Source: Alphaproteobacteria bacterium (GTDB lineage: Bacteria > Pseudomonadota > Alphaproteobacteria > Micavibrionales > UBA2020). Taken from it: a stretch of 64,000 bases of DNA. The notes under the pieces were generated by a model. The model made no database searches, was not told where the DNA came from, and was given only the letters and a program-made list of their open reading frames with translations. This document shows positions 7,462-27,037 of the stretch, piece after piece (positions within the stretch are counted from its first letter, which is position 1; each line of letters opens with the position of its first letter). Both the position numbers and the translations under genes were made by a program. The stretch spans positions 1,485,536-1,549,535 of the forward strand of contig OZ257145.1 in NCBI GenBank assembly GCA_965279315.1. The letters are read 5' to 3'.

Positions 7462-7509
7462 TGATGGCAACAAACAACAAAAATCAAAAATTATTCGAGG
7501 GTGTAAAAC

Positions 7510-8004: not shown

Positions 8005-8014
8005 GGGGTTTCCC

Positions 8015-8527
8015 ATGTTAAAACTGACACTGTCGGCAACCGCCGATGATGCCGGCAATATCGGTGCGTCCCGCGTGGTCGAGGCCGATGCCAGCGCCTA
8101 TGGCAACGAGCTGGCCGCGCTGCAGGCGGCGTCAAGGCTGATGGACAAGCAGGGCCTGGATGACTTGCGCGTCACCTATGGCAACGGCGTGGTCAATCTG
8201 TTCAAGGGCGATGACCTGGCGGAAAAGGCGGACGAGCTGTTTGACCGCGCGAGCGCCTTCAGCCTGCGCCAGCTGCCGAGCCTCACCGTGCCCGAACTTG
8301 CGTTCGGCGAACCCGACCGCGCGCGGAACATTCAGGAAGCGGCGCACAGCGCGCTGCGCATCGCACAGAAATTCAACCGCAAGGTTTCCTTCCAGTTCAA
8401 CAGCATCGCCGTTGCGGGCGTGGAGCCGAAAGCCGAAATCACGAAAAAAGATATCGAGGCGGTCGTGGATACCTACAGCAAAGCCTCCAAGGCCTTTTAC
8501 GCAGGACGCGGCGGCTTCAAGGCCTGA
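8015..8527 (+). CDS. Hypothetical protein (170 aa)
   Basis: Starts 11 nt after the previous stop, so probably co-transcribed. Soluble-looking sequence, no family recognised. Its 3' end overlaps the convergent DUF808 paralogue 4 by 31 nt. Confidence 0.5.
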   Translation: MLKLTLSATADDAGNIGASRVVEADASAYGNELAALQAASRLMDKQGLDDLRVTYGNGVVNLFKGDDLAEKADELFDRASAFSLRQLPSLTVPELAFGEPDRARNIQEAAHSALRIAQKFNRKVSFQFNSIAVAGVEPKAEITKKDIEAVVDTYSKASKAFYAGRGGFKA

Positions 8528-9615
8528 ACCGGCGTTGGCGCGGCGGATGCCTGCGGCGCGTTGAGTGCCGCCGCCGCATCGTTCAGCGCGGCTTTCACAT
8601 CGGGCATGGCTTTGAGGGGCATGGCTTTGAAACCGTCATTGGCGGGCACTAGCACGGGCACAGGGCGCAAGGTTGCAATCGCGGCACCCTTCTTCCCCGG
8701 CTTCACTTTACCGGCAGCTTTCTTCACAAACGCCACAGCCGCACGCAGGTAAGGCTTCACGGCCTTGCCAATCGGCTGGGCCGCCACGCCCGCGATCAGC
8801 CCGACGCCGGCATTCAACGCCAGCGATGCCGCGCCCTGCACGAGCGCGTTTGACGACAGGTAGCCAAGCGCCGTTGCGGCAACATGGTCCGCCCCCGGGA
8901 TGCCATGCACCAGCATCGTGCCGCCGACCACGAACATGGCGGCAGAACCCAGCACGCCGATGGCCTTGATCAGCTTCGGCGCGATGCGCACCAGCCCTTC
9001 ACCCGTCTTGCGCATGGCCCTTGAAAAAACGCTGTCGCCCTTTTTCGCGGCCAGTAGGTCGCCCGCGTCATCAATCTTGATGACGGCCGCCACCGTCGCA
9101 TAAACGCCCACCGTCATGGCAAGCGCGGTCGCCGCCAGCGTGCCGAGCTGGATCAGGAAGGGCGCGCCCGCGACCGTCAACAATGAGACCGTTGTGATTT
9201 CGGCAGAGAGCAGCAGGTCGGTGCGGATGGCATGCTTGATATGCTGCTTTTCCCATCCCGCATGGTCTTGCGCATGGGCTTCGTTGGCATTGGGTTTCGG
9301 CGCCTTCATCTTGCGGTGGACGATTTTTTCCATCGCGTCATAGCAGAGCAGCGCGCCGCCCGCCGCGAGCATAGGGACAATCAGTCCCGGCATGGTGAAG
9401 GTGAGGCCGAGCGCGGTTGGGATCAGGATCGCCTTGTTCTTCAACGCGCCCTTGAACACCTGCCAGACCATCGGCAGCTTGCGGTGGCTCTGCCCGCCGA
9501 TCAGCAGGTTGCAGGCAATCGCGGTGTCGTCGCCGACCACGCCGAGCGTCTGCACCGCCGCGCGTTGCGACAATGCGGCGACTTCCCCCAGCTGTGCGGC
9601 GAAAGTGGCCGACAT
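8497..9615 (-). CDS. DUF808 (YedI-like) membrane protein, paralogue 4
   Basis: 372 aa from MSATFAAQLGEVAALSQRAAVQTLGVVGDDTAIACN..KGALKNKAILIPT..GGALLCYDAMEK..DLLLSAEI..KIDDAG..GSAAMFVVGGTMLVHGIP. Confidence 0.8.
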   Translation of the reverse strand: MSATFAAQLGEVAALSQRAAVQTLGVVGDDTAIACNLLIGGQSHRKLPMVWQVFKGALKNKAILIPTALGLTFTMPGLIVPMLAAGGALLCYDAMEKIVHRKMKAPKPNANEAHAQDHAGWEKQHIKHAIRTDLLLSAEITTVSLLTVAGAPFLIQLGTLAATALAMTVGVYATVAAVIKIDDAGDLLAAKKGDSVFSRAMRKTGEGLVRIAPKLIKAIGVLGSAAMFVVGGTMLVHGIPGADHVAATALGYLSSNALVQGAASLALNAGVGLIAGVAAQPIGKAVKPYLRAAVAFVKKAAGKVKPGKKGAAIATLRPVPVLVPANDGFKAMPLKAMPDVKAALNDAAAALNAPQASAAPTPVQALKPPRPA

Positions 9616-9697
9616 ACGCGATGAGCTTTCTGTTGTTGAACGACAGAAAAGATACCCGATGGGGTACAATAATGGAAGTATTATGTAACTTGTTGAT

Positions 9698-10744
9698 TTA
9701 GAAGCGATAACCCAAGGTCACAGTGCCGAAAATTGACGGGTCGTCCTGCTTGTCGAATTCCTTCGTCCGGTACATCAGTGCATAGCTCAAACGTGTATGC
9801 CCGTAGGTAAACGCGATGCCCGCGCTGGCATCGCCGACGAAGAGTTTTTTATCGACGCTGTAGCTGTCGGCAAAGGTATTGCCGTCGAGGAAGATGTTAC
9901 GGGCGACGGCGCGGCCTTCGATGCCGCCGAACAGGTGCCAGCTGAACTGGCCGTCATCGACGATAAACGCGCCGGTGCCGGGCATGGCGGGGCGCACACG
10001 CGCCGGATCATCCTGAAACCGCCCCGAAGACGGGCTGAGGCGAAGCGACAGGCCTGCATTCGTATAAGTATAGATGTTGCCGAGCGTCACGCCGAAATGC
10101 GGCTCGACCCCTGCCGATAGCCCCAGCGGGCCTTCAAACCCGAAACGCTCCGGCCAGCGGCGCTGCCAGCTGAGCATCAAACCCGGCTCGTTCGACAATT
10201 GGTTGTCCCAACCGCGCGGGGTGGGGCTGTCGGATATATGTTCGTGCACGAAACTCTGCACCTGACGGCCCAGCGCTGCGGGACCGACGACGCCAACTGT
10301 CGCCTCCACCTCGTCGATATGGTTGTCGGTCACGCTGACCAGACCGGCGGAGGTGTAGAGGAACGCGGCCCAAGGCCTGTCATTCGGGTCCTGGGTGACG
10401 CGCGTGATGTCTTTGGGCGTATAAAGGTTATGACCGAGCGAATAGTAGATGCTGGTCGTCGGGTTGATCGAGAAAGTGGGGATCAGCCGGTCGATCACGT
10501 CGAAAATCTGCGGCGGGCGCTTGCCAAGGTCGAAATAGCTGATGCGCGCGCCATTCGTATAATTCTGGTCGGTGCCGCCGCCATACAGGTCGTTTTCGGA
10601 ATTGAGCGTAATGAATTTGCGGTCTTTCACATCGACTAGCCGCTGGGCGATCTGCTGCTGTAACGTTTCCTTCTCCTCCTCCGCGCGGGCGGGGGAGGCG
10701 AGCAGCAATGCGGCGAACAGGAATGTATAGATGACCGGTCTCAT
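9698..10744 (-). CDS. Outer-membrane lipid A deacylase LpxR-family (DUF2219-like) protein
   Basis: 348 aa from MRPVIYTFLFAALLLASPARA (signal peptide). SENDLYGGGTDQNYTNGARISY motif, alternating beta-strand-like C-terminus ending in F. Family is recalled, not searched. Confidence 0.6.
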   Translation of the reverse strand: MRPVIYTFLFAALLLASPARAEEEKETLQQQIAQRLVDVKDRKFITLNSENDLYGGGTDQNYTNGARISYFDLGKRPPQIFDVIDRLIPTFSINPTTSIYYSLGHNLYTPKDITRVTQDPNDRPWAAFLYTSAGLVSVTDNHIDEVEATVGVVGPAALGRQVQSFVHEHISDSPTPRGWDNQLSNEPGLMLSWQRRWPERFGFEGPLGLSAGVEPHFGVTLGNIYTYTNAGLSLRLSPSSGRFQDDPARVRPAMPGTGAFIVDDGQFSWHLFGGIEGRAVARNIFLDGNTFADSYSVDKKLFVGDASAGIAFTYGHTRLSYALMYRTKEFDKQDDPSIFGTVTLGYRF

Positions 10745-10809
10745 AACGCATCCTAACATGCGGGCGGGCTTTGGGTTCAACCGGTTCCCAAGAATTCGGG
10801 CAGTGATGC

Positions 10810-10846
10810 AAAAAAACAAGCCGCCCGGGTAAGGGGCGGCTTGTTT
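10810..10846 (-). terminator. Rho-independent terminator after gcvP
   Basis: AAACAAGCCGCCC / GGGCGGCTTGTTT stem, followed on the minus strand by T7, 17 nt after the gcvP stop. Confidence 0.65.
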
Positions 10847-10862
10847 CCGGATAATCAGTCGC

Positions 10863-13745
10863 TTATGCCGCCTCGGAATATGCCTCGATAGGCGGGCAGG
10901 CGCAGACAAGGTTGCGGTCGCCTGCCGCATGGTCGATGCGGTTGACGGGCGGCCAGTATTTATCACCGATCAGGTGCGCCGCCGGGAATGCGCCGTCGTG
11001 GCGGGAATAGGGGCGTTCCCACTTGTCGGCGGTCAGGTCACCCAGCGTATGCGGGGCGAGCTGCAGGGGGTTGTTGCCCTGCGGCCATATGCCTTTTTCG
11101 ACTTTCTCGATTTCCATGCGGATGACGGTCAGTGCCTCGATGAAGCGGTCCAGCTCCGCCTTGCTCTCGGATTCCGTCGGCTCGATCATCAGCGTGCCGG
11201 GGACGGGGAAAGACATGGTGGGCGCGTGGAAGCCGAAATCCATCAGGCGTTTGGCGATATCGTCGACGCTGATATTCGCGGAGGTTTTCAGCGGGCGCGT
11301 GTCGAGAATGCATTCATGCGCCACATAGCCGTTCTTGCCCTTGTAGAGCGTGACGTAATGCTTTTCCAGTTTCTTGGCGATGTAGTTGGCGTTCAGGATC
11401 GCCACCTGCGTTGCGCGCTTCAGCCCTTCCGTGCCCATCAGCGTGATATAAACCCACGAAATCGGCAGGATCGATGCCGAACCGTAGGGCGCAGCGGATA
11501 CAGGGCCAATCGCGTCTTCGCCGCCCACGCCGCCGACCAGCGGATGGCCGGGAAGGAAGGGAGCAAGGTGTTCGCCAACGCCGATCGGGCCCATGCCGGG
11601 ACCGCCGCCGCCATGCGGAATGCAGAAGGTCTTGTGCAGGTTCATGTGCATGACGTCCGCGCCGAACTTGCCGGGGCAGGCGAGGCCGACCAGCGCGTTG
11701 AAATTCGCGCCGTCCATGTAGACCTGTCCGCCGTTGTCGTGGATGATCTTGCAGATTTCGCGGATCTCTTCCTCGAACACGCCATGCGTCGATGGATAGG
11801 TCACCATCAGCGCGGCAAGCTTGTCCTTGTGCTGCTCCGCTTTCGCGCGCAGGTCGGTCAAATCGACGTTGCCATTTTCGTCGCAGGCGGTGATGACGAC
11901 CTCCATACCCGCCATCACGGCAGTTGCGGGGTTGGTGCCATGCGCGGAAGACGGGATCAGGCAGATATTGCGGTGCGACTGGCCTTTCGATTCATGATAG
12001 GCGCGGATGACCAGCAGGCCGGAATATTCGCCTTGGCTACCCGCGTTCGGCTGCAGCGTCACGGCGGCAAAGCCGGTCAGCGTGCAAAGCTTCGCTTCCA
12101 GATCTTTCAGCATCAGTTTGTAACCCTGCGCCTGATCGAGCGGCGCGAAGGGATGCATGTTGCCGAATTCGGGCCAGGTGACGGGGATCATTTCGGCCGT
12201 CGCGTTCAGCTTCATCGTGCAGGACCCGAGCGGGATCATGGAACGGTTGAGCGCGATGTCTTTCTGTTCCAGATGGCGGAGGTAGCGCAGCATTTCGGTT
12301 TCGGAACGGTATTGGTGGAAGGTCGGGTGCTGCAGGTATTCAGATGTGCGTTTCAGCGATTGCGGAATGGCATCCTGCACGCCCGCATCCAGTGCCTCGA
12401 CCGAAAAACCAAGCGCGCCCTTGCCGGAGAATACCTGCCACAGGCGGAAGACCTCATCGCGGGTGGAGCGTTCATCCAGCGACACGCCGATGCGCCCGTC
12501 GCCGAAATCGCGCAGGTTGATTTCCTTTGCCGCCGCGCGGTTCAGGATATCCTGCGCATGGCTGCCGGTATCGACCGTCACGGTGTCAAAGAAGCTGGCA
12601 TTGGTGGAGCTGAAACCAAGCTTGCGCAACCCTTCCGCGAAAATCGCGGCAAGGCGGTGCGTGCGGGTCGCAATCGTTTTCAGGCCTTCGGGGCCGTGAT
12701 ACACGGCATAGAAGGCCGCGATGTTCGCCAGCAGCACCTGCGCCGTGCAGATGTTCGACGTCGCCTTTTCGCGGCGGATATGCTGTTCGCGCGTTTGCAG
12801 GGCCAGCCGATAGGCTGCTTTCCCCTTTGAATCGACCGACACGCCGACGATGCGGCCGGGGATGGAACGTTTATAGGCATCCTGCGCGGCAAAGAATGCG
12901 GCATGGGGGCCGCCGTAACCCAGCGGCACGCCGAAGCGCTGCGCCGATCCGAACACGATATCCGCGCCCCATTCGCCGGGCGGTTTCAGCAGCGTCAACG
13001 CCAGCAGGTCGGTCGCAACGGCAACCGCGATATTTTTTGATTTCGCCTTCGCCGCAAGATCGCCGTAATCAACGACCGCGCCCGATGTGCCGGGATATTG
13101 CAGCAGGATGGCGAAACCGTCTTTTTCAATCAGGTCGCCGGCCTTGCCCACGACAACTTCGATGCCCAGCGGTTTCGCGCGCGTTTCCACAACCGCAATC
13201 GTTTGCGGGTGGCAGTCATCGGCGACAAGGAACACGTTGCTGGTGGACGAACCAACACGTTTCGCAAGCGTCATGGCTTCGGCGGCGGAGGTTGCTTCAT
13301 CCAGCATCGATGCGTTGGCGAGCGGCATGCCCGTCAAATCCATCGTGACCTGCTGGAAATTGATCATCGCTTCCAGCCGGCCTTGGCTGATTTCGGGCTG
13401 GTAAGGCGTATAGGCGGTGTACCAGCCGGGGTTTTGCAGCACGTTGCGCAAAATCACGTTCGGCGTGATGGTGTCGTAATAGCCCGCGCCGATCAGGGAG
13501 CGGTAGACCTTGTTCTGCTTCGCCATGCTTTCCAAAAGCGCCAGCGCATCGTGTTCCGTCATCGGCTCGCCGGTGGCGGGCGCCGATTTTTCGCGGATGG
13601 ATGCGGGCACGGCCTTGTTCGTCAGGTCGTCGAGGCTCGTCGCGCCGACGGTGCGCAGCATCGCGGCGATATCGGATTCAGAAGGCCCGATATGGCGGCG
13701 GATGAAATCGGTGCGTTGTTCAAGGTCCTGTATCGTCTGCGGCAT
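10863..13745 (-). CDS. gcvP: Glycine dehydrogenase (decarboxylating), single-chain P protein
   Basis: 960 aa, full-length GcvP-like sequence (FIRRHIGPS.., [11 protein letters not shown].., [19 protein letters not shown]-Lys region). ATG 13745 is chosen because ATG 13772 would overlap gcvH by 23 nt. Confidence 0.95.
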
Positions 13746-13749
13746 GCGC

Positions 13750-14124
13750 TTAAAGTCCTTTAATGTAGTCATTATACGCGGCTTCGTCTTTCAGGCCGGC
13801 GAGGTCGTTTTCGTTGGCGATCTTCACCTTGAAGAACCATGCCTTGCCCAGCGGGTCCGTGTTGACCAGCGCAGGGTCGCCCGAGAGCGCGGCGTTGGTT
13901 TCAACGACTTCGCCCGAAACGGGGGAATACAGTTCCGACGCCGATTTCACGGATTCAACCACGCCCGCCTGACCGCCCTTGGTCAGCGTCGCGCCGATTT
14001 TCGGCAGTTCGACATAGACGACATCGCCCAGCGCCTTTTGCGCGAAATCGGTGACGCCGACGGTGCCGACGCCGTTTTCGATGCGGATATATTCATGGTC
14101 TTCGCTGAACAGGATCTTGGTCAT
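13750..14124 (-). CDS. gcvH: Glycine cleavage system H protein
   Basis: 124 aa; lipoyl-lysine context [20 protein letters not shown]. Confidence 0.95.
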
Positions 14125-14135
14125 TTTTATTCCCC

Positions 14136-15266
14136 TTAGTCTTTTTTGTAATTGTTTTTGACGAATGGCAGCGCCACGATTTCACAAGGGCGCGCCACGC
14201 CGCGCAGCATGGCATTCAGTTTCGTGCCGGTTTTCGCGACATCCGAATTGACGTATCCCATCGCGACAGGGCCGTCGACCGTGGGGCCGAAGCCGCCCGA
14301 CGTGATGACGCCGACTTTTTTGTCGCCGATGAACAGTTCGGTTTTCTCGCGGATCGGCGCGCGGCCCTCCGGCTTGATGCCGACGCGCAGGATAAAGGTG
14401 CTGCCGTCCAGCTGTTTCTTGATCTTGTCGTATCCCGGGAAACCGCCCTGTTCTCGGCGGCGTTTCGGGATCACCCATTTCAGGTTGGCGTCGATGGGCG
14501 TCGAATGGTCGTCGATGTCGTGGCCATACAGGCACAGCCCCGCTTCGAGGCGCAGGCTGTCGCGCGCGCCGAGGCCGATCAGCTTCACTTCCGGTTCCTG
14601 CAGCAATTCATTCGTGAATTCCACGGCAAACGCGTTCGGCACCGAAATTTCAAACCCGTCTTCGCCGGTATAGCCGGAGCGCGACAGGAAAATTTCGTGG
14701 CCTTTGTATTGTGTCTTCACGGATTCCATAAATTTCATCCCCAGCACATCGGGGAAGAAGATCGACGCCACCTGTTCCGCCTTCGGCCCCTGCAACGCCA
14801 GCAGCGCGCGGTCGCCGAGATATTGCAGTTTGGTGCGGTTGCCGATTTTTTCCTGGATAAACGCGAAATCCTTTTCCTTGCAGGCGGCGTTCACCACCAC
14901 CAGCAGCGTGCGCGCATCCCAGCGGGTCACCATCAGGTCGTCGATAATACCGCCGTCGTCGTTCAGCAGGACGGTGTAGCGCATCTTGCCGGGTTCAAGG
15001 CCGGTGATGTCACCGGGTACGATCGTTTCAAGCGCGATCGCGGGGTCGGCATCGTTGCCCGTCAAAATCGCCTGGCCCATATGGGAGACGTCGAACAGGC
15101 CGGCTTCGGTGCGGGTATGCACATGTTCTTTGAGCACGCCCATGCCGTCATACTGGACGGGCATGTCATAACCCGCGAAGGGCACCATTTTTCCGCCCAT
15201 GGATGTATGGACTTCCCAGAGCGCGGTTTTCAGAAGGGGGGCGTCGTTTTTTTGAGCGGCTTCCAA
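14136..15266 (-). CDS. gcvT: Aminomethyltransferase (glycine cleavage T protein)
   Basis: 376 aa, GcvT-like throughout (FAGYDMPVQY, DVSHMGQ, SRSGYTGEDGFEIS). TTG start with AAGGAA 7 nt upstream. Confidence 0.95.
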   Translation of the reverse strand: MEAAQKNDAPLLKTALWEVHTSMGGKMVPFAGYDMPVQYDGMGVLKEHVHTRTEAGLFDVSHMGQAILTGNDADPAIALETIVPGDITGLEPGKMRYTVLLNDDGGIIDDLMVTRWDARTLLVVVNAACKEKDFAFIQEKIGNRTKLQYLGDRALLALQGPKAEQVASIFFPDVLGMKFMESVKTQYKGHEIFLSRSGYTGEDGFEISVPNAFAVEFTNELLQEPEVKLIGLGARDSLRLEAGLCLYGHDIDDHSTPIDANLKWVIPKRRREQGGFPGYDKIKKQLDGSTFILRVGIKPEGRAPIREKTELFIGDKKVGVITSGGFGPTVDGPVAMGYVNSDVAKTGTKLNAMLRGVARPCEIVALPFVKNNYKKD

Positions 15267-15299
15267 GGCAAATTCCTTTACATAGTCGGTCGGAGTTTG

Positions 15300-15475
15300 C
15301 CCCGCTCTGTCTTCTTTGCCTTAGAGATTCCGCATCGTTTACAGATGCTTGCTCCTTTGGCGCGGCTGAGCCGCTTTCCAGATTGCGAAGTCGCCGCGCG
15401 GTCCTTTTGCCTGAGAGTTTTCCGGGGTGATTGCTCCTTCGGCGCCGGTCTTTCAACCGGTCTCTCCCGCGTGGC
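15300..15475 (-). promoter_or_regulatory. Tandem glycine riboswitch (two aptamers) in the gcvT leader
   Basis: Minus-strand read: GGGAGAGACC..GGCGCCGAAGGAGCAA..CTCTCAGGCAAAAGGAC, then TCTGGAAAGCGG..CCGCGCCAAAGGAGCAA..CTCTAAGGCAAAGAAGAC. This matches the conserved cores of both glycine aptamers. Confidence 0.85.
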
Positions 15476-15552
15476 GGTCGCTTTGTTCGATTGACACTAA
15501 TGTCTCTTGCCCTAAAGTCAACTAAAGGAACGAAGAGGGTAGATAAAACGAC

Positions 15553-16650
15553 ATGGCCACGAATTCGCAACGCGCGCCGACACCGGTGCTGGTTTCAAGC
15601 TATGCGCTTGGTTTCATTGTTTTTTGCCTGATCGTTTATATCCTCAGCGTGGCCGCCACCATCCTGATCCCTTTCGTGATCGCGGTTTTCGTCTGGTACC
15701 TTATTAATGCGATGGCGCGGGGGCTCGGCCGCGTGAAACTGGGCGATACCTACCTGCCCCGATTCTTGTGCTTCCTGTTCGCGATGATGCTGCTCGTCGG
15801 CGGATTGTGGTTTGTCTACAAGCTGATTTCGGTGAACGCGGTGGAGGTCTTGCGCGCCGCGCCGATCTACCAGAAAAAACTGATGGCCTTCCTGCCGCGC
15901 ATCCTGTCCGGCCTGCCGCCGGAATATCAGGTGAGCCCCTCCGACCTCGGCACTTACCTTGATGTGGGCGGTTTCATCAAGACGATGGTGACGGCCTTCA
16001 CCGGCATCGCCGGCAAGGCGCTGGTGGTGCTGTTCTATACGGGCTTCCTGCTGTACGAACAGCAATTCTTCGGCCGCAAGATACAGGAAATGCTGCGCGA
16101 AAAAGCGGCGGAGGCCCGCATCCACAAAACCATCAAGACGATCGAAGACAAGATCCAGCGTTACATCTGGGTGAAGACTTTCGTCAGCGCGATGGCCGGC
16201 ATTTCCACCTGGCTGATCCTGATGACGTTCAAGATCAGCTTCGCCGAATTCTGGGGCGTGATCGCGTTTGTCCTGCACTTCATCCCCTATGCGGGCGCGA
16301 TTGCCGCCGTGGTGCTGCCATCCGTGGCCGCGCTGGTGCAGCTGGGCGATATGGGCGACACGACGCAGCTGGCATCCCTGATGCTCTGCCTGTCCGCCAT
16401 CCAGGTGTTCTGCACCAGTTTCCTCGACCCCCGCCTGATGGGGGACAGCCTGAACCTGTCGCCGATCGTCATCATTTCCGCGATTGCCGCCTGGGGCGTG
16501 CTGTGGGGCGTGCCGGGCATGTTCCTGGCCGTGCCGATCCTGGCCGCCGCCGTCATCATCATGTCGCAATTCGCCAACACCAAATCGATTGCGATTTTGA
16601 TGTCGAAAACCGGCGATATCGAAAGCCATGTGTCGGGTAAAGACGCATGA
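15553..16650 (+). CDS. AI-2E family (PerM/UPF0118) transporter, copy 1
   Basis: 365 aa, ~8 TM. Characteristic FIPYAGA...LMGDSLNLSPIVIISAIAAWGVLWGVPGMFLAVPI. Confidence 0.85.
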   Translation: MATNSQRAPTPVLVSSYALGFIVFCLIVYILSVAATILIPFVIAVFVWYLINAMARGLGRVKLGDTYLPRFLCFLFAMMLLVGGLWFVYKLISVNAVEVLRAAPIYQKKLMAFLPRILSGLPPEYQVSPSDLGTYLDVGGFIKTMVTAFTGIAGKALVVLFYTGFLLYEQQFFGRKIQEMLREKAAEARIHKTIKTIEDKIQRYIWVKTFVSAMAGISTWLILMTFKISFAEFWGVIAFVLHFIPYAGAIAAVVLPSVAALVQLGDMGDTTQLASLMLCLSAIQVFCTSFLDPRLMGDSLNLSPIVIISAIAAWGVLWGVPGMFLAVPILAAAVIIMSQFANTKSIAILMSKTGDIESHVSGKDA

Positions 16651-17759
16651 CAGTCAAACCCGTCCCCGCGCCGGTCAGCAAGACGCACAGCCTTGCGCTG
16701 GGCTTTATCGCGGCATGCCTGTTCATTTATATATGCCGCATTGGCGCAACCGTCATCATGCCGCTCGTGATTTCGCTGTTCATCTGGTACCTGATCAACG
16801 CGATTGCCCGCTTCCTTGGCCTCATGTCGACCAAATCCGGCTACAAACTGCCGCGCCTGTGGCGGTTCGTGTTCGCGCACATGATTATCCTGCTGGTCGG
16901 CTTTTTGCTGTCCAAGATGGTGAGCGCGAACATCGACGACGTGTTGCGCGAAGCGCCGAAATACGGCGAGAGTTTCGACCGCATCCTGGCGCAGGTCGCC
17001 GGCATCCTGAAACTCGACCATACGCCGACGCTGCACGAGGCGTTCAAGGAAATCTTCGGCAATTACATCGACCTCAGCCAGTTCATCACTGTCTTCGCAG
17101 GCATGCTGACCGGCATCGCGGGCAAGACGATCATCATCCTGTTCTATGTCGGCTTCATGCTGTACGAACAGCGCTGGTTCAACCGCAAGATGAAACTGAT
17201 GATGCCCGACAAGGAGCGCGAGGCGCATGTGCGCCACGTGCTGAAAGTGATCGACACCAAAATCCAGAAATACATCGGCGTGAAGGCCTTCGTGTCGCTG
17301 CTCGATTCCTTCCTGACGTTCCTGATCCTCACCTATTTCAAGGTCGATTTCGCGGGATTCTGGGGCGTGATGGCGTTCTTCCTGCACTTCATCCCCTATG
17401 CGGGGTCGTTCGTGGCGGTCACCACGCCCTGCCTGATCGCGATGATCCAGCATGGCGACCTGACGACGGTTGCGATGCTGGCGGCGACGCTGCTGACCAG
17501 CCACGCCTTCCTCGGCCATATCCTTGACCCGTATTTGATGGGCAATAACCTGAACCTGTCGCCCATCTTCATCATCTCCAACCTGGCCATGTGGGGGATG
17601 CTGTGGGGCGTGCCGGGCATGTTCCTGGCCATCCCCATCCTCGCGATCACCACGATTGCCCTGTCGCAGTTCGAGGCGACACGGCCGGTGGCGGTCCTGT
17701 TCTCAAAGACAGGGCTGGATATGCATCCGAAGCGGAGACGGACGAAGCCGGAAGTTTAA
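16647..17759 (+). CDS. AI-2E family (PerM/UPF0118) transporter, copy 2
   Basis: 370 aa, overlaps copy 1 by ATGA. Same motifs (FIPYAGS...LMGNNLNLSPIFIISNLAMWGMLWGVPGMFLAIPI). Confidence 0.85.
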   Translation: MTVKPVPAPVSKTHSLALGFIAACLFIYICRIGATVIMPLVISLFIWYLINAIARFLGLMSTKSGYKLPRLWRFVFAHMIILLVGFLLSKMVSANIDDVLREAPKYGESFDRILAQVAGILKLDHTPTLHEAFKEIFGNYIDLSQFITVFAGMLTGIAGKTIIILFYVGFMLYEQRWFNRKMKLMMPDKEREAHVRHVLKVIDTKIQKYIGVKAFVSLLDSFLTFLILTYFKVDFAGFWGVMAFFLHFIPYAGSFVAVTTPCLIAMIQHGDLTTVAMLAATLLTSHAFLGHILDPYLMGNNLNLSPIFIISNLAMWGMLWGVPGMFLAIPILAITTIALSQFEATRPVAVLFSKTGLDMHPKRRRTKPEV

Positions 17760-17770
17760 AGGGCGGTGGT

Positions 17771-18328
17771 TTAAAGCCCCAGCCGCTTCTTGCGCTCGAT
17801 ATACCCGCGCGTGCTTTGGTCGATTTCGTAATCGCCGATCTTGATGACCATGCCGCCGATCAGCGACGGGTCGACCGCGACCTTGGTTTCGCCCGCCACG
17901 ATATTGAACTTGTCCTTGATGCGGCCGATCAGGTGGTCGGATGTGGCCACATCCATGGGGAAGGCGGAGGTGAGGGTGATGTCGACATTGCCCTCCAGCT
18001 CCTTGCGCTGCCGCACATAGGATTCAAACACCCATGGGGCATAAGACAGTTTCTTGCCGTCAATCAGCGCGTCGACGAATTCGCGGAAGATTTCATCGAC
18101 CTCCATCTTGTCATACACCGGTTTCATGACGTCTTTCATGTCGTCCGGCTTCAGGCGCGGGTCGCGCAGGATTTTTTCGAAATCCGGCATTTTGACGATT
18201 TCCGCCAGCAGCTCCAGCTTTTCTTCCCAAACCGCGACAGCCGACATTTCCTGCGCGATTTCCAGCGCGGCCTTGGCGAACAGGCGGCCCAGCTTCGGGG
18301 CGATATCGCGCTTGGGTTTGGGTTCCAT
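17771..18328 (-). CDS. atpH: F-type ATP synthase delta subunit (OSCP) family protein, not adjacent to other atp genes
   Basis: 185 aa. Delta/OSCP layout: N-terminal helical part (LGRLFAKAALEIA..), C-terminal ..NVDITLTSAFPMD..KVAVDPSLIGGMVIKIGDYEIDQSTRGYIERKK. Its ATG overlaps the upstream stop as TAATG. Confidence 0.65.
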   Translation of the reverse strand: MEPKPKRDIAPKLGRLFAKAALEIAQEMSAVAVWEEKLELLAEIVKMPDFEKILRDPRLKPDDMKDVMKPVYDKMEVDEIFREFVDALIDGKKLSYAPWVFESYVRQRKELEGNVDITLTSAFPMDVATSDHLIGRIKDKFNIVAGETKVAVDPSLIGGMVIKIGDYEIDQSTRGYIERKKRLGL

Positions 18329-21081
18329 TATTGATCCTTCTTGAAAACGAAGCGTGAATAGAACCAGCTGAGCGCCAGCAAGCTGAGGCCGAGGCCCATG
18401 AACGAAAACACGCGGTAAAGCCCCGTCAGCTCGTCGACGTCATAGAGGAACACCTTGCCGACCGTCACGATCATGACGCCCAGCGACGCGATGCGCAGCG
18501 CCTTGTTCTGCTTGAGCGTGCCAAGGAACAGCAGGCCCGCGCCCAGCAGAAGCCAGACGGCGGAATAGGTATACACTTCCGCGTTTTCCGTCGCCCCCTC
18601 CATCAGGAAGCGGCCGTGATAGAACTGGCGCACCTGCAGCGTGACGAAGATGAACAAAAGCGTCAGCGACAGCCCGCCCGTCAGGCTGCGCGGCAGCGTC
18701 GCCATGCGCAGGCTGGGCTTTTCCTCCAGCCACAGCCACGCGACCGGCAGCGCATAGGGCAGCCACAGCCAGTTCAGCAGCGGCGTCGCGCCCACATCCT
18801 GCGAGCGGCTCCAGAGCGGGTTGGAAATGAACAGGTCGAAATAGAAGACGCGGAACATCGCCATCGCGAACAGGAACGAGCCCGCCCACAGCAGCGCGCG
18901 GCGGCTGTAAAGCCGTCCGGTGTAAACCACCAGCAGCGCCGCCGCGAAGAAGATGTTCGTGATGATGCCGCGTTCCATGAAGCCGGCCTTGCGGAACAGC
19001 ACATCGCCCGGCACCTTGAACACATGGCGGGCGAGGTAGTAGAGCATCAGCGCGCCCAGCGCCACCATCGTCATTTCAAACAGCTCGACCAGTTTGTCAT
19101 CCCCGCGCAGGCGCAGGAAAAACGCAGCCGCGCCGATCAGCACCATCGGGATGCCCAGCTGGAACACCGGCTGGTCGGCAAGCGGCGGCAGGCCGTGCCA
19201 CGGCGACCATTCGACGCCCGTCAGGCTGTTGGCGGTCACGCTGCCCAGCAGCAGAAGCTGCGGCAGGATCAGCAGCAGGAATACGCCGAACAGGATCGCC
19301 GCGATCCGGCGCAGCGCCTTGATGTCGATCTTCCACGCCACCCAGCACACGGCCAATGTTTCAGCGGCGAAGGCGACCGCCATCCAGTCCTGATGCACCT
19401 CGATCACCAGGGCAATCGATGCAAAAGCGGTGGTCATCAGGCTGAACAGCGCCAGCAGGCGGTCGCGCAGTTTTTCGTCGCCCGCAAAATTGCGGAACAC
19501 GTCGCCCGTCAGCCATGCAAAGCCGAGTGCCAGCAGCACCGCAATCGCCGACCACACATGCAGCACATCGCCGGAAATGATGTTCAGCAGCGGATAGATT
19601 TCCTTGCCGATCGTGGCATAGCCGACCCCGTAGAAACCGAGCGAGGCTGCGGACAGCACGCCCGCCATCGTCAGCGACGGCCAGCGACGCAAGAGCCAGA
19701 ATGTCGGCAGGGTATAAACGATGGCAAGCCCCAGCTCGACCATCGCCATTTCCGCGTCCGCCGTGTGCCGCCACATCAGCAGCATCAGCAGGCTGGTGCC
19801 CAGCGACAGGTATGGCACGTATTTGAACTGCGCGGGACGGAAGAACGCCATGGCGATGCCGCCCAGCGCCAGCAAGCCGAACATGCCCCATTCCAGCAGC
19901 CCGTAATCGCAGCGCATGGTGACAAAAGCCATCAACGCGACGCCGGCTGCGGCTGTGAACACGTTCAGCGTGCCGATGCTCGCGCGGTCCTTGCCGCCGA
20001 GTTTGGTGTCTTCCTGCGCCGACGGCACCATGATGACGCCGCTGACCGCGAGGATGAACAAGCCCATGACCAATCCGTCATCGGCGCTGAAATTCCCGCT
20101 GAAATTCCAGACGAGTATCCAGCCGAATGCCAGCACCGCCATCGGCACCGACAATGCCCACCAGCCCAGTTTGCGGAACGCCGTGAAGAGGCCGGCGACA
20201 AGGCAGAACAAATAGAAGAACAGCATGGGCGCGGACGGATGGTCTGTCGTGATCAGCGCAGGCGTGATGAAGCCGCCCAGCATCCCCAGCACCGCAACCG
20301 GCATGCCATGGCGCACCGACAGCACGACGGCAAGCGCGGTCGTCGCCGCCATGCCGATGAAACCCACCATCGGCGGGAAGAAATGATACATCTGCGTCGC
20401 GGCATAGATGGTCGCATACAGCGCTGCGATGCCCGCACCCGCCAGTGACATCGCAATGCGCGCGCCATCGGCCATGGTCGGGTTTTTCTCGCGGATATAG
20501 CGTGCGCCGCCGATCAGCAATGCTGCGAAGACAAAGCCCAGCACGATGCGGACTTCTTCGGTCAGCAAACCCTGCTCGATCGAATATTTCACAAGGTAGA
20601 AACCGGCCAGCGCGAGCGAGATGCCGCCAATCCAGACGGGCAGGCGTTTGCCGAACTGGAATTCGAAGCCGCTGCCCTGCGTCGATTTATCGGCAGCATC
20701 GGTTTTCTGCTGCCGCACCATGCTGGCGGCGGCGCGCGACTCTTGCTGTTCGGCGCGGATCTTTTCCTGTTCGCGTTCGAACGCGACGCGGATTTCGTCA
20801 GGCGGGGTGTAGGCGGGAATGCCTGCCGTCAGCAGCGACGACGGCGGAATGGCGCTGGCGGGCGGCAGCGGCGATGCGGGCGGAATACCGCCCGGCGTCA
20901 GCGGCATGACCTCGACTGGCGCGGCATCAGCGGTGCTGGAGGCGGTGCTGGAAAGGGGACGGGGCGGCAGGGGCGCGCGGTCGATACGGGTGCGCAGCTC
21001 GGTCACGTTATCTTCAAGGGCGCGGAAACGGCCCCACAGGAAGAACAGGAAGACGACGACGCCAAGTACAACTATTTCCAT
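18328..21081 (-). CDS. Large polytopic membrane protein, DUF2339-like
   Basis: 917 aa. N-terminal TM, then helix (FRALEDNVTELRTRIDR), then a Pro-rich linker, then >20 hydrophobic segments. Architecture is typical of DUF2339 (recalled). Confidence 0.6.
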   Translation of the reverse strand: MEIVVLGVVVFLFFLWGRFRALEDNVTELRTRIDRAPLPPRPLSSTASSTADAAPVEVMPLTPGGIPPASPLPPASAIPPSSLLTAGIPAYTPPDEIRVAFEREQEKIRAEQQESRAAASMVRQQKTDAADKSTQGSGFEFQFGKRLPVWIGGISLALAGFYLVKYSIEQGLLTEEVRIVLGFVFAALLIGGARYIREKNPTMADGARIAMSLAGAGIAALYATIYAATQMYHFFPPMVGFIGMAATTALAVVLSVRHGMPVAVLGMLGGFITPALITTDHPSAPMLFFYLFCLVAGLFTAFRKLGWWALSVPMAVLAFGWILVWNFSGNFSADDGLVMGLFILAVSGVIMVPSAQEDTKLGGKDRASIGTLNVFTAAAGVALMAFVTMRCDYGLLEWGMFGLLALGGIAMAFFRPAQFKYVPYLSLGTSLLMLLMWRHTADAEMAMVELGLAIVYTLPTFWLLRRWPSLTMAGVLSAASLGFYGVGYATIGKEIYPLLNIISGDVLHVWSAIAVLLALGFAWLTGDVFRNFAGDEKLRDRLLALFSLMTTAFASIALVIEVHQDWMAVAFAAETLAVCWVAWKIDIKALRRIAAILFGVFLLLILPQLLLLGSVTANSLTGVEWSPWHGLPPLADQPVFQLGIPMVLIGAAAFFLRLRGDDKLVELFEMTMVALGALMLYYLARHVFKVPGDVLFRKAGFMERGIITNIFFAAALLVVYTGRLYSRRALLWAGSFLFAMAMFRVFYFDLFISNPLWSRSQDVGATPLLNWLWLPYALPVAWLWLEEKPSLRMATLPRSLTGGLSLTLLFIFVTLQVRQFYHGRFLMEGATENAEVYTYSAVWLLLGAGLLFLGTLKQNKALRIASLGVMIVTVGKVFLYDVDELTGLYRVFSFMGLGLSLLALSWFYSRFVFKKDQ

Positions 21082-21109: not shown

Positions 21110-22894
21110 TTAGGGTTTGGGCGGTTTAGCGGCGGGCGGGGCTTTCGCCTTTGCCGCTTCCTTTGCGGCTTCCTCCTGCTTCAGCGCTTTTTTGTCGGGC
21201 TTGCCGATCATTGTTTTCGGCAGGCTGTCGCGGGTTTCGAACTGCTTGGGCATTTCATACGGCGCGAGTTTATCACGCAAGAACGCGGTCATTGTCTTGT
21301 CGTCGACCTTTTCCGCATCCGCCTTGTACACGATGAACGCCTTCACGGTTTCGCCGCGGTATTCATCCTTCACGCCCAGCACGATCACTTCCGACACGTT
21401 CGGGTGCTGCATGATCGCCTCTTCCACCTTGCGGGGGAACACTTTCAGGCCGGATGCGTTGATCATGTCCTTGATGCGGTCGACGATGAAGATATAGCCT
21501 TCTTCATCCATGTAACCGACGTCGCCGGTGTGGAAATAGCCGTCTTTGTCCATCACGTTGGCGGTTTCATCGGCGCGGTTCCAGTAACCCTGCATCACCT
21601 GCGGGCCGCGCAGGCAGATTTCGCCTTCCATGCGGATGGGGCAGGCCTGGTCGGGGAATTCCAGGTTGGCGATTTTCACTTCCGTTTTCGGAAGCGGCAT
21701 GCCGATGGAATTCAGTTTCTTTTCGCCATGCACGGGGTTGGCAACCGCGATGGGCGAGGTCTCGGAAAGGCCATAGCCTTCTGTCAGCGCCGTGCCGGTC
21801 AGTTTCGTCCAGCGTTGCTGCGTCGTTTCCGGCAGGCCCGCGCCGCCCGACAAAACGATTTTCAGCGACGACAGGTCGTATTTGCTGACATCGGGATGGT
21901 CCATCAGCGCCTTGAACAGCGTCGGCACGCCCGCAAACATCGTGGGCTTTTCCGCGTTGATCGTCTTCAGCGTCGTTTTCGCGTCGAACTGCGGCAGCAT
22001 GACGATTTCCGCGCCCAGCTTGATCGACAGGTTCATCTGCACGGTCATCGAGAACACGTGGAAGAACGGCAGCACGACCAGCATCTTCTCCTGCTTGTTC
22101 GTGCCCTTGCCGGGGCTGCCGCTGGTGAACCAGAAATCGGCCTGGTTCAGGTTGGCGGACAGGTTGGCATGGGTCAGCATTGCCGCTTTCGGAATGCCCG
22201 TCGTGCCGCCCGTATATTGCAGCACGGCAAGGTCGGTCGGTTTCACATCGACCGGCGCGGGATTGCCCTTGTTTTTCATCAGTTTCGCGAAGGGGATATG
22301 CTTGTCGTCGCTCTTCACTTTGACCGTATCAGCCTTGCCGAACCAGCCCTTCACCGTGTTCAGGACTTTATAGGCAAAGCCCTTCACGCCCGGCAGCGCA
22401 TCGGCAAGATCCGCCACGATGACTTTTTTCAGGCAGGTGGTGCCGTCCAGCATTTTATCGATCTTCGGCTGGATTTTGGTGACGGCGAGCGACACCATCA
22501 CATCGGTCTTGCTGTCGTTGATCTGGCCGCGCATTTCCTGCTCGGCATAGAGCGGGTTGAAATTGACGACCGTCGCACCCGCCTTCAGCGCGCCATAATA
22601 GGCGATCACATAAAAGGGCGTGTTCGGCAGGCACAGGCCCACATGGGATCCCTTGCCGAAACCGGCATCCTGCAATCCTTTGGCGAATTTATCGACTTCC
22701 TGACCCAGTTCTTTGTACGTCAGCGTCTTGCCCATGAAATTCAGCGCGGGCTTGTCGGCGTTTTTCTTGACCGAGTCCTCGAACATCTGCGTCATCGTGG
22801 AAACGGGAACTTCCATGTCCCAGTCGATGTCCACCGGATACTTGTTGCTCCAGGGATACTTGCCTTGCGGCTGGGGGGAGGCGGCTTCGGTCAT
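21110..22894 (-). CDS. fadD: Long-chain-fatty-acid--CoA ligase (AMP-binding family) with a Lys/Ala/Pro C-terminal tail
   Basis: 594 aa. AMP-binding motif LQYTGGTTGIPKAAMLTHANL, later GYGLSETSP and YFHTGDVGYMDEEGY. Tail ..KQEEAAKEAAKAKAPPAAKPPKP. Confidence 0.9.
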   Translation of the reverse strand: MTEAASPQPQGKYPWSNKYPVDIDWDMEVPVSTMTQMFEDSVKKNADKPALNFMGKTLTYKELGQEVDKFAKGLQDAGFGKGSHVGLCLPNTPFYVIAYYGALKAGATVVNFNPLYAEQEMRGQINDSKTDVMVSLAVTKIQPKIDKMLDGTTCLKKVIVADLADALPGVKGFAYKVLNTVKGWFGKADTVKVKSDDKHIPFAKLMKNKGNPAPVDVKPTDLAVLQYTGGTTGIPKAAMLTHANLSANLNQADFWFTSGSPGKGTNKQEKMLVVLPFFHVFSMTVQMNLSIKLGAEIVMLPQFDAKTTLKTINAEKPTMFAGVPTLFKALMDHPDVSKYDLSSLKIVLSGGAGLPETTQQRWTKLTGTALTEGYGLSETSPIAVANPVHGEKKLNSIGMPLPKTEVKIANLEFPDQACPIRMEGEICLRGPQVMQGYWNRADETANVMDKDGYFHTGDVGYMDEEGYIFIVDRIKDMINASGLKVFPRKVEEAIMQHPNVSEVIVLGVKDEYRGETVKAFIVYKADAEKVDDKTMTAFLRDKLAPYEMPKQFETRDSLPKTMIGKPDKKALKQEEAAKEAAKAKAPPAAKPPKP

Positions 22895-25790: not shown

Positions 25791-25885
25791 ATATTTATAT
25801 ATTTCAGTGTCTTGTGCGCGTTATTGACATAACTCGCGTAATCCCGTATCCTCCGCGCAACCTCAAAATTAGCGAGCCAAGAGCC

Positions 25886-27037
25886 ATGAAATTCGAAGAC
25901 ACCAGCCTGTTGCGCCACCCGACCGTCGAGAAGGCGTATAACGTCATGCGCACGTTTTTCTCGGATGGCGACGACTGGGCGCGCGAAGCGGTGCGGGCGG
26001 GCGAGATTATTACCGCGAATGCCAAGAACCCCGACCCCGATGCGATTGCGGCGAGCGTGCTGATGAACGGCATGGTTATCCCTTATGAAGCCGAACAGTT
26101 CGAACAATCGGTTTCCCCCCGCGCGGCGGATTATCTGAAAAAATTCTACGCCCTCGACCTCGAAAACCCGACCTTCTCGACCGCGGGCGAACAGCAGGTG
26201 TTGCTGGCGACCTCCGTGATCGGGCTTGAAGCTATTCAGGCGAAAATCGCCGCCGGTGACGTCGCGCATATCATCGAATACCGCAATGTCAGCCGCGTGA
26301 TCGACATGAACGAACGCAGCCTCGCCGAAATCGCGCGCGACGGCACGACGGAACCGGAAATGCTGCAGGCCGCGCAAACCGCGCTTGTCGGCGCGCAAAC
26401 CGCGCTCGCCAATGTGGTGGCGCAGCGGGTCGATGAATTGAAATTCGAAAACACCGGCCTGCCGGATCATCCCGTTATCCGCACCGTGTACGAAGAAATG
26501 AAGACATGGGCATTCGATGGCGACGCGCTGGGCGGTTATGCCCAGACCAATGCCGCGATTGCGAAAGTGGTGGCAGACAGCGTCTCCAGCGACCCCGAAG
26601 TGATTGCGGCGGCGCTGCTGAACCAGTACAGCACCCTGCGCCCCGGCCACAAAAAGCCCGAAGATTTCGGCGCGCGCATCGGCGAGCTGTGGACGCAGAC
26701 CTCCGCCTGGGCGCGCATGGGCGGCGATGAAACGGCCAACCAGCCGAAAACGCCCGAAGCGCTGGCGATCCGTCAGGCGGTGCGTCTCTACTTCCTCGAA
26801 GAACAGGTCGCATGGCTGAATTCCGCGAAGGGCATGGAGCGCGACGCGCGGATCGAAACGCTGGAGCGCCTCGAAGACAGCCGCGACATCGTGGCGGAAG
26901 CCGCAGCGACGCAGGACAACCCCGTTTTCAAGGCGCGCCTTGATAAGGCGGTTGCGGGCGCAGACGCGCTGATCCACAAGCCCGAAAACGTGAAAATCCG
27001 CAAGCCCGGCAGCCCCAAGGTCGATCCGGGTTGGTAA
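25886..27037 (+). CDS. Hypothetical protein with an internal two-fold repeat (383 aa)
   Basis: From MKFEDTSLLRHPTVEKAY. Residues ~12-62 and ~198-250 align (HP.V...Y..M.T...DGD....DP..IAA..L.N). No family recognised. Confidence 0.5.
   Translation: MKFEDTSLLRHPTVEKAYNVMRTFFSDGDDWAREAVRAGEIITANAKNPDPDAIAASVLMNGMVIPYEAEQFEQSVSPRAADYLKKFYALDLENPTFSTAGEQQVLLATSVIGLEAIQAKIAAGDVAHIIEYRNVSRVIDMNERSLAEIARDGTTEPEMLQAAQTALVGAQTALANVVAQRVDELKFENTGLPDHPVIRTVYEEMKTWAFDGDALGGYAQTNAAIAKVVADSVSSDPEVIAAALLNQYSTLRPGHKKPEDFGARIGELWTQTSAWARMGGDETANQPKTPEALAIRQAVRLYFLEEQVAWLNSAKGMERDARIETLERLEDSRDIVAEAAATQDNPVFKARLDKAVAGADALIHKPENVKIRKPGSPKVDPGW

Follow-up and report, generated by a model that had tools for sequence, protein, structure and literature searches.

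An ATP-synthase delta/OSCP-type gene located behind a DUF2339 membrane-protein gene and away from atpA in Micavibrionales

In ATP synthases of the gamma- and betaproteobacterial type, the delta-subunit gene atpH lies between atpF and atpA in the cluster atpIBEFHAGDC; its canonical place in Alphaproteobacteria is at the head of atpHAGDC. A normal atpH-atpA-atpG-atpD-atpC cluster (GMV_673-679) is found in the excerpted gene table of M. aeruginosavorus ARL-13, by its name a cultured relative, and one ATP-synthase delta is listed in that excerpt (PMC3189940, supplementary file 4). Term counts seemed to point to a second set of ATPase genes, but this is most likely a duplication within the table, because only one epsilon subunit occurs in it. 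As far as the excerpt goes, ARL-13 is an outgroup that does not share the synteny of the locus described below. We found nothing in the literature on atpAGDC with atpH, and, among the papers listed for Micavibrionales, none that looked relevant to gene order. That a delta domain can be joined to a polypeptide anchored in the membrane is known from the mycobacterial b-delta fusion (PDB 7nkd, 7jg5; NF009961). The DUF2339 family has been equated with Arc3A, which prevents lysophospholipid accumulation (PMC8926400); protection against phospholipase-driven accumulation is experimental for P. aeruginosa and P. protegens only (PMC8926400), and aas genes have been reported beside arc3 in many bacteria (Ting et al. 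2022, PMC8926400).

The window, by which we mean the whole 64-kb stretch of DNA analysed here, carries a delta/OSCP gene behind a DUF2339 gene (Table 1). As the preliminary description had it, the delta ATG overlaps the stop of the upstream 917-aa reading frame (TAATG, 18326-18330): in the minus-strand junction AAGGATCAATAATGGAA the DUF2339 stop TAA occupies 18330-18328 and the delta ATG 18328-18326, an overlap of 1 nt, and a Shine-Dalgarno-like AAGGA stands 6 nt upstream of the ATG. The gene that follows is, again as described, a convergent transporter; it belongs to the AI-2E family and comes second in a tandem pair (partner at 15553-16650). Between its stop codon and that of delta there are 11 nt, the spacer being ~175 nt longer in relatives. 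On the other side, a fadD-like gene, probably the first gene of the operon, ends 28 nt upstream of the DUF2339 gene. Promoter and terminator scans gave sites no commoner than in shuffled sequence, and the sole minus-strand promoter-like site, from a scan whose total was not above the shuffled one, lies at 23231-23203, upstream of the fadD-like gene. PADLOC returned no match for the delta, DUF2339 and FadD-like proteins or a 168-aa neighbour, leaving an anti-phage defence role without support.

Table 1. Features of the delta locus in the window (nucleotide positions unless residues are stated)
Feature	Position	Strand	Basis or remark
AI-2E family transporter	16647..17759	(+)	PF01594, 4.7e-44; convergent, bounds the delta unit
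Delta/OSCP gene (atpH-like), 185 aa	17771..18328	(-)	PF00213, TIGR01145, NF004402, AF2, Foldseek, dN/dS
Delta N-terminal helical bundle	~residues 10-111
Delta C-terminal alpha/beta domain	~residues 114-182
Putative coupling junction	18326..18339	(-)	AAGGA 18339-18335 and TAA/ATG overlap
DUF2339 (Arc3A-family) polytopic membrane protein, 917 aa	18328..21081	(-)	PF10101, 7.4e-102
DUF2339 TM1	21025-21081	(-)
DUF2339 helix and Pro-rich/charged linker	20644-21024	(-)
DUF2339 domain	18349-20652	(-)
AMP-binding acyl-CoA/acyl-ACP synthetase (FadD-like), 594 aa	21110..22894	(-)	PF00501, 2.5e-98, and PF13193

The large partner proved to be the DUF2339-type polytopic protein proposed earlier: PF10101 covers its residues 144-911 (342.7 bits, all 659 profile positions), and ~24 hydrophobic segments are seen. 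Like the Arc3A/aas loci of Pseudomonas aeruginosa and other bacteria (PMC8926400), the window thus places a large polytopic DUF2339 gene beside a gene for an AMP-binding acyl-activating enzyme, a pairing that, by analogy with those loci, is consistent with lysophospholipid handling. In contrast to them, no Arc3B-like lipoprotein gene was recognised at the window locus, and the AMP-binding enzyme is FadD-like rather than a demonstrated Aas/LplT fusion; the NCBIfam long-chain-fatty-acid--CoA ligase models match it, all below their cut-offs. The role of Arc3A and its reported aas neighbourhood may account for the fadD-like/DUF2339 pair, but not for the appended delta gene, which is not described in PMC8926400.

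The delta/OSCP layout first noticed in the 185-aa product is borne out over its full length by family profiles and by fold. The OSCP family PF00213 matches residues 17-181 (E 1.1e-32, 113.9 bits against a cut-off of 22.3), and the protein exceeds the cut-offs of both TIGR01145 (100.2 versus 57.5 bits) and NF004402 (116.6 versus 115). The AF2 model (mean pLDDT 90.3) has helices over residues 10-111, followed by strands and helices over 114-182, that is, the predicted two-domain delta fold of an N-terminal six-helix bundle and a C-terminal alpha/beta domain. In Foldseek, the 40 matches to this model at E <= 0.001 are delta/OSCP chains, and the best of them, each with probability 1.00 (P. aeruginosa 9o19_W, A. 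baumannii 7p2y_d, E. coli 6oqr_W and bovine OSCP), come from intact ATP synthases; with 1abv, the N-terminal domain of the E. coli delta, the TM-score normalised by the target is 0.87. Compared with close relatives, the gene has a dN/dS of 0.04-0.10, similar to trpS and gcvH of the same genomes. Its GC3 of 0.79 is similar to that of neighbouring genes, so it is no recent import.

The window protein belongs to a tight and well separated clade, whose members score at least 230 bits while the next matches reach at most 154, and which carries its own N-terminal extension, MEPKPxKxTA, of ~8 residues. Judged by sequence, the clade is of the gamma/beta-proteobacterial type and not of the alphaproteobacterial type. 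With the gamma/beta model NF004402 (cut-off 115) its members score 117-162 bits, those other than the window 137-162. None reaches the cut-off of 172 set for the alpha-type model NF004406, on which the window delta has 73.6 bits and clade members have 87-91; the Paracoccus delta 5dn6_H, used as positive control, passes with 197 bits. Correspondingly, the window delta matches the A. baumannii delta with 66 bits and the Paracoccus delta with 22. It thus shares PF00213/TIGR01145, its length class, the two-domain fold and presumably the role of peripheral-stalk cap with canonical alphaproteobacterial AtpH (e.g. that of Paracoccus denitrificans, PDB 5dn6 chain H), but lies away from atpA and fails NF004406. 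Its best match in both sequence and structure is the gamma/beta delta (NF004402; 7p2y_d, 9o19_W, 6oqr_W), with which the clade has the ARPYAKAAF, W, LIGG and GD.VID.S.RG motifs in common; it differs from these proteins in the MEPKPxKxTA segment, in its host genomes, which are labelled Alphaproteobacteria, and in its position outside the atp cluster at every locus seen. The preliminary description had not raised the gamma/beta type of the delta, which contrasts with the alphaproteobacterial labels of the neighbours at these loci and of the closest named DUF2339 relatives.

To compare conservation, the 38-member clade was set against 220 canonical gamma/beta-type deltas. The majority residue of the clade agrees with the canonical one in all but a few of the 25 columns best conserved among the canonical deltas, and the positions kept include the ARPYA motif of helix 1, W34, P57, L94, A122, LIGG and GD.V.D.S; in the window's own sub-branch, GRLFA replaces ARPYA. 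The two conservation profiles are correlated (Spearman 0.60, p 2e-18).

The adjacency to DUF2339, which the preliminary description proposed to look for elsewhere, is conserved: the delta gene stands behind DUF2339 in 11 loci, namely the window and ten relatives (L001, L003, L004, L007-L010, L013, L014 and L019), among which delta identity falls to 36%. A purine-rich Shine-Dalgarno sequence inside the DUF2339 3' end is kept in the ten relatives, where the junction between the two genes measures -20 to +16 nt. These relatives include the basal branch L019, and L004, where the downstream gene is different and the junction still tight; the fadD-like gene keeps its position in six (L001, L003, L007, L013, L014 and L019). 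A region of ~25 kb is syntenic across these genomes, so that the conserved adjacency alone says little about a functional link. Deltas of the sister branch stand alone, in four or five unrelated settings (L016, L017/L018, L020/L021, L022 and L023), with no DUF2339 in the flanks examined (up to 10 kb on long contigs). Being a delta is therefore the only trait common to the clade, which has no fixed partner. A scan of genome contigs with the clade recovered five species and a metagenome scan two further loci only, both solitary, while none was found on viral contigs.

As noted at the outset, no ATP-synthase genes follow the delta gene. Neither the P-loop motifs of atpA and atpD nor an a- or c-subunit motif (atpB, atpE) in a plausible gene was found anywhere in the 64-kb window, tblastn with AtpA gave no match there, and atpA was present in the flanks examined of 0 of 23 related loci. 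Among the best 120 clade-profile matches listed, no second delta cluster from the same relatives appeared.

The preliminary description offered two explanations: either atpH has been displaced from the F1 operon, or a delta paralogue has been co-opted as an adaptor on a scaffold formed by DUF2339. The former is the better supported by the delta fold, the conserved residues, strong purifying selection and the relatives that lack DUF2339; the latter gained nothing, and its argument from subunit b fails, as shown below. We consider it reasonably probable that the gene encodes a working stator delta, dislodged from the operon or replacing the operon copy, that rides on the DUF2339 transcript; most likely it is a normal stator subunit that happens to be encoded at an unusual site, and not a new machine. 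The protein would then be a functional delta capping the peripheral stalk of the cellular F1Fo ATP synthase, in an uncultured Micavibrio-like lineage where delta would no longer be encoded beside atpA, either because a break of the operon left it behind or because a gamma/beta-type copy landed elsewhere and displaced the native one; the cell would in that case have no other atpH. In the window's branch, delta closes a unit of three genes, the fadD-like gene, DUF2339 and delta itself, of which the first two may form a lysophospholipid or membrane-repair module. It would be co-transcribed with them and translated by ribosomes re-initiating at the TAATG, with AAGGA supplied by the last DUF2339 codons, and this may keep the product, of which each complex requires a single copy, at a low and constant level. 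Against this reading stand the gamma/beta type of a delta whose neighbours carry alphaproteobacterial labels, the normal atpHAGDC cluster of ARL-13, and the departure of the window's sub-branch from the ARPYA motif.

Alternatively, the gene may be an additional delta of the gamma/beta type, acquired horizontally, with a native alpha-type atpH still present beside atpA. It would then cap the stator as an alternative subunit or under certain conditions, or use the same surfaces to bind a different partner, and its place behind DUF2339 would be incidental. The gamma/beta type, the separateness of the clade with its own extension, and the lack of atpA beside the delta at the loci seen all fit this account, and so does the canonical atpHAGDC cluster retained in the excerpted ARL-13 table: with a normal cluster in the outgroup, the native atpH may adjoin atpA here too, which would make the window delta a second copy. 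Against it, that excerpt lists a single delta, and no second set of ATPase genes lies nearby. Moreover, a redundant foreign subunit would not be expected to show the dN/dS found here across a clade reaching down to 36% identity. To our knowledge, two deltas for one F-ATPase are also very rare. We regard an extra delta as possible but rather doubtful.

An arrangement that joins this idea to DUF2339 seems to us unlikely. Here a normal alpha-type atpH would stand by atpA, and the orphan gamma/beta delta would be maintained in addition, as another protein of the OSCP fold with a function of its own. For the window's branch this would mean a cytoplasmic partner that is co-translated with DUF2339 and either connects membrane-lipid repair with the ATP synthase or puts the delta fold to use as an adaptor for a membrane protein.

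We hold it a shade less probable still that the gene is a delta/OSCP paralogue acting simply as a cytoplasmic adaptor on DUF2339, co-translated with it and binding its N-terminal helix and linker or its C-tail. The persistence of the close junction over deep divergence, including L019 and L004, speaks for such an adaptor, and the N-terminal linker and the C-tail of DUF2339 are K/R-rich and probably cytoplasmic. The solitary members of the sister branch and the synteny of the surrounding region speak against it, as do the conserved residues, which are those of a canonical delta, and the finding of 0 DUF2339-OSCP fusions among the best 120 DUF2339 homologues. The adaptor had been suggested by the DUF2339 N-terminus, whose TM segment, helix and Pro-rich linker are all present as described and were thought to resemble the membrane-anchored stalk of subunit b. 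That resemblance did not hold: residues 1-150 match no Pfam family even at E<=10, BLASTP against E. coli AtpF finds no similarity (E 5.8), and the helix after the TM segment runs for ~20 residues before the linker, as against ~100 residues in the b stalk. In addition, the same N-terminal TM segment, short coiled helix and Pro/Ala-rich linker are found in the DUF2339 proteins of Rhodomicrobium, Devosia and P0042, no delta gene adjoins the P0042 gene at the locus inspected, and the layout appears to be present throughout alphaproteobacterial DUF2339 proteins. The mycobacterial b-delta fusion differs in the same respect, as it contains a true b subunit in one chain and is encoded inside the atp operon, whereas the window has two reading frames and a partner without a b-like domain; its model NF009961 is absent from the 13 NCBIfam families that the delta matches at E <= 0.01.

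Finally, a decaying remnant or mis-called reading frame without function, for which only the odd location speaks, is practically untenable, since conservation in many genomes (with intact copies in 38 or more clusters at 90% identity) together with purifying selection shows that the gene is not a chance reading frame, and both the gene-like codon composition and the confident fold prediction agree.

If the gene encodes a working delta, the locus would be a clean case of a lineage-wide break in the conserved atpH-atpA link, in which a stator subunit needed once per complex is expressed via an unrelated membrane-protein operon and an alpha-type predecessor was possibly replaced by a foreign gamma/beta-type copy. 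This bears on the interchangeability of stator subunits and also on annotation, since an F1 cluster of this kind would be called incomplete by any pipeline that looks for atpH within the operon. The presence of two deltas, if true, would matter more, since we know of no described free-standing OSCP-fold protein with a partner other than the ATP synthase.

The delta/OSCP gene lies directly downstream of a gene for a DUF2339 membrane protein, which is itself preceded by a gene for a FadD-like AMP-binding enzyme. The DUF2339 stop codon TAA (18330-18328) and the delta ATG (18328-18326) have one base in common, AAGGA is found 6 nt upstream of the delta start, and the minus-strand junction reads AAGGATCAATAATGG. 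In the 64-kb window, a motif scan found no ATP-synthase alpha/beta P-loop motif, no a/c signature was found in any plausible gene, tblastn with E. coli AtpA gave no match, and Pfam scans of 25 larger ORFs detected no ATP-synthase family. Since the ORFs, the junction and the protein families were confirmed and no other ATP-synthase gene was found in the 64 kb, the preliminary description of an orphan delta gene, overlapping the upstream DUF2339 gene at TAATG and facing a convergent transporter, is correct in every particular. No obvious terminator is present between the convergent delta and AI-2E genes, and the interval (17760-17770) lacks the spacer of ~175 nt that separates the two stops in the related loci L001 (10559-10744) and L007 (10559-10743), where it contains a called 51-aa minus-strand ORF.

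Features of the window and gene contexts of solitary delta genes in related loci
Feature	Position	Strand	Remarks
delta/OSCP gene, 185 aa	17771-18328	-	PF00213 (OSCP), residues 17-181, E 1.1e-32
DUF2339 gene, 917 aa	18328-21081	-	PF10101, full profile covered, E 7e-102
FadD-like AMP-binding enzyme gene	21110-22894	-	end 28 nt upstream of DUF2339 gene
Two tandem AI-2E transporter genes		+	convergent on delta gene; nearer stop 11 nt from delta
Four tandem DUF808 paralogues	3881-9669	-	3881-4954, 4866-6131, 6121-7293, 8497-9669
Two small ORFs	7510-8004, 8015-8527	+	interrupt DUF808 array
gcvT-gcvH-gcvP	15266 down to 10863	-	
Glycine riboswitch aptamer RF00504	15389-15479	-	75 bits; upstream of gcvT-gcvH-gcvP
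Deoxyhypusine-synthase-family gene (PF01916) near ornithine/DAP/arginine decarboxylase gene	40771-43140	-	
Three conserved-looking ORFs, 525, 548 and 407 aa	43297-46517 (-), 25814-27037 (+)		no Pfam match; GC3 0.75-0.86
Solitary delta, L016			beside flagellin gene and integrase island
Solitary delta, L017/L018			before secreted protein and ABC transporter
Solitary delta, L020/L021			after ferredoxin gene
Solitary delta, L022			after ACR3-like transporter gene (assigned by reading translation)
Solitary delta, L023			on TARA ocean scaffold

Elsewhere in the window, the glycine riboswitch is the expected regulator of a glycine cleavage operon, and the PF01916 and decarboxylase genes possibly form a polyamine (homospermidine-type) biosynthesis module. 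In L001 and L007, a single DUF808 gene follows LpxR within the stretch fetched. The 407-aa ORF is located between trpS and ileS, where relatives carry genes of ~383 aa.

The window delta exceeds the cut-offs of TIGR01145 (100.2 against 57.5) and NF004402 (116.6 against 115). Its end-to-end alignments with delta/OSCP chains from solved ATP synthases comprise A. baumannii (7p2y_d, 66 bits), P. aeruginosa (9o19_W, 63), pig and bovine OSCP (~48) and E. coli (47). Of the E. coli query sequences, AtpA and b served as probes only; the delta query is considered faithful because it matches the whole of the enterobacterial equivalog NF004404 with 329 bits. The AlphaFold2 model, built on 43 sequences (mean pLDDT 90.3), predicts that residues 10-111 form a helical bundle and residues 114-182 a mixed alpha/beta domain. 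Searched with Foldseek, this model gave 40 matches at E <= 0.001, which are delta/OSCP chains, and its predicted N-domain matches 1abv with a target-normalised TM-score of 0.87. In the E. coli protein, the first helix of the N-domain contributes to the groove for the alpha N-terminus, and the C-domain touches subunit b. When 38 members of the clade formed by the window delta and its relatives were aligned with 220 canonical gamma/beta-type deltas, the clade majority residue was identical at nearly all of the 25 most conserved canonical columns. The shared residues include helix-1 ARPYA, W34, P57, L94, A122, LIGG and GD.V.D.S, and per-column conservation is correlated between the two sets (Spearman 0.60, p 2e-18). 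The dN/dS of delta against close relatives is 0.04-0.10, a range into which trpS, gcvH and the fadD-like gene also fall when these genome pairs are compared, and the GC3 of delta (0.79) is similar to that of the neighbouring genes. Judged from its sequence, the gene is functional and long resident. The canonical nature of all visible constraints on the protein and the strong selection on it favour a working stator subunit.

A local departure was observed at residues 14-22, within the helix that contacts the alpha N-terminus in E. coli: the window sub-branch has GRLFAKAAL in place of ARPYAKAAF, the sequence seen in the other clade members and in canonical gamma/beta deltas, with 99-100% conservation of its positions in the 220 canonical sequences.

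With 117-162 bits, every member of the clade exceeds the NF004402 cut-off of 115, as do Neisseria, SAR86-like and other gamma/beta deltas. On NF004406 they score 74-91 bits against a cut-off of 172. The latter profile represents the alphaproteobacterial type, because the delta of Paracoccus denitrificans (taken from PDB 5dn6_H by means of a made-up alpha-like bait that served only for printing the alignment) scores 197 on it and 110 on NF004402; the window delta has only 22 bits to this protein. Among the matches listed, the nearest named ones beyond the clade come from Gamma- or Betaproteobacteria (SAR86, Pseudomonadales, Agarilytica, Neisseria, Bergeriella, Stenoxybacter and Bibersteinia). 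Meanwhile, the host genomes are labelled Alphaproteobacteria or Micavibrio, the taxonomic placement being that of the submitters, and the closest named DUF2339 relatives among the matches listed are alphaproteobacterial. These data fit an ancient gain of a gamma/beta-type delta that settled away from the atp cluster and took the place of the native atpH, and also fit such a gain now standing alongside the native atpH. That the order's native delta never gained alpha-type features and later moved seems less likely, since mitochondrial OSCP (~130 bits) scores far above gamma deltas (70-85) against the made-up alpha-like bait. For the cultured Micavibrio aeruginosavorus strain ARL-13, the excerpted gene table (PMC3189940, supplementary file 4) gives a cluster priA ... 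atpH(558 bp)-atpA-atpG-x-atpD-x-atpC, the b, b', c and a genes at a separate site, which is the usual split organisation, and one ATP-synthase delta. The excerpted entries do not share the synteny of the window, and ARL-13 therefore serves only as an outgroup. The main rival to a working stator subunit, a second delta coexisting with another one, seems to us unlikely, though worth weighing, because one would not expect a superfluous stator subunit of foreign origin to survive for so long.

The preliminary description proposed looking for the DUF2339-delta adjacency in other genomes, and it is indeed conserved. The close delta relatives (96-53% identity) all lie directly downstream of a DUF2339 gene. 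Including a reverse search started from DUF2339 homologues, a block IleRS / TrpRS / SRAP / 168-aa protein / FadD-like / DUF2339 / delta / AI-2E x2 (convergent) / gcvTHP / LpxR was found in GCA_041287865.1 (DUF2339 53% identical) and in GCA_028283745.1, a MAG labelled Micavibrio sp. (47%), where only a small gene between IleRS and TrpRS is lacking; a DUF2339 homologue at 40% identity has no adjoining delta gene. A tight junction (-20 to +16 nt) is seen wherever the pair occurs, with a purine-rich ribosome-binding site supplied by the closing codons of the DUF2339 gene (..FVFKKD, ..FREED, ..VKEKE), which supports co-transcription of the two genes and makes translational coupling probable. A crude scan, whose total of promoter-like sites does not exceed that of shuffled sequence, placed the sole minus-strand site upstream of the fadD-like gene.

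A clade profile retrieved 38 clusters at >= 230 bits, with the next matches at <= 154 bits, and all 38 share an N-terminal MEPKPxKxTA extension. In a simple neighbour-joining tree, drawn without support values, the clade falls into a DUF2339-linked branch including the window, the basal L019, likewise DUF2339-linked, and a solitary sister branch. Since no atpA-like sequence was found in any of the 23 loci (326 kb including the window), separation from atpA is a trait of the whole clade; DUF2339 linkage is a trait of only part of it. Several loci show further peculiarities. Directly after the solitary delta of L016, an island (10561-20564) carries a phage-type integrase, two S24/LexA-like peptidases and a Y-family polymerase (IMS) cassette, and a mobile element may have inserted there. 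The JGI relative L007 (2.41-Mb contig) has an inserted reverse-transcriptase gene (3471-4784, minus strand; PF00078, 437 aa; group II intron or retron type), flanked by the fadD-like gene and a conserved hypothetical gene of 185 aa; this insertion is absent in the window. For the clade delta P0142, the called protein has 294 aa, including 63 additional residues at the N-terminus and a long C-terminal tail rich in Lys and Pro. Its JGI contig of 5076 bp is equal in length to the contig of the DUF2339 protein P0030, and the N-terminal addition appears to be a wrongly called start that overlaps the 3' end of the DUF2339 gene, and not a fusion.

Arc3A belongs to the DUF2339 family, and in Pseudomonas it confers intrinsic protection against the phospholipase toxin Tle3 by blocking build-up of lysophosphatidylethanolamine and monolysocardiolipin; aas (acyl-activating / lysophospholipid re-acylation) genes are reported to adjoin arc3 genes in many bacteria (PMC8926400). 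Because the FadD-like gene directly upstream of DUF2339 matches this neighbourhood, the pair would make functional sense without delta. The likening of the DUF2339 TM-plus-stalk to subunit b did not hold: the N-terminal layout of a TM, a short amphipathic helix and a linker rich in Pro and Ala is also that of the DUF2339 proteins from Rhodomicrobium and Devosia and of the homologue P0042, whose gene has no delta neighbour, residues 1-150 gave no Pfam match even at E<=10, and BLASTP against E. coli subunit b gave E 5.8. In addition, no DUF2339-OSCP fusion occurs among the best 120 DUF2339 homologues, and PADLOC gave no match for any of four proteins tested; the DUF2339 TM count is a hydropathy estimate. 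A delta adaptor on DUF2339, a special case of the coexisting delta, is quite improbable, being weakened by the relatives with a solitary delta and by an N-terminus generic to the family.

The delta itself is the sole feature common to all contexts, which again favours a stator role. On balance, we think that the clade probably has a working stator delta encoded away from atpAGDC, which in the branch of the window would be read as the last part of the fadD-like/DUF2339 transcript.
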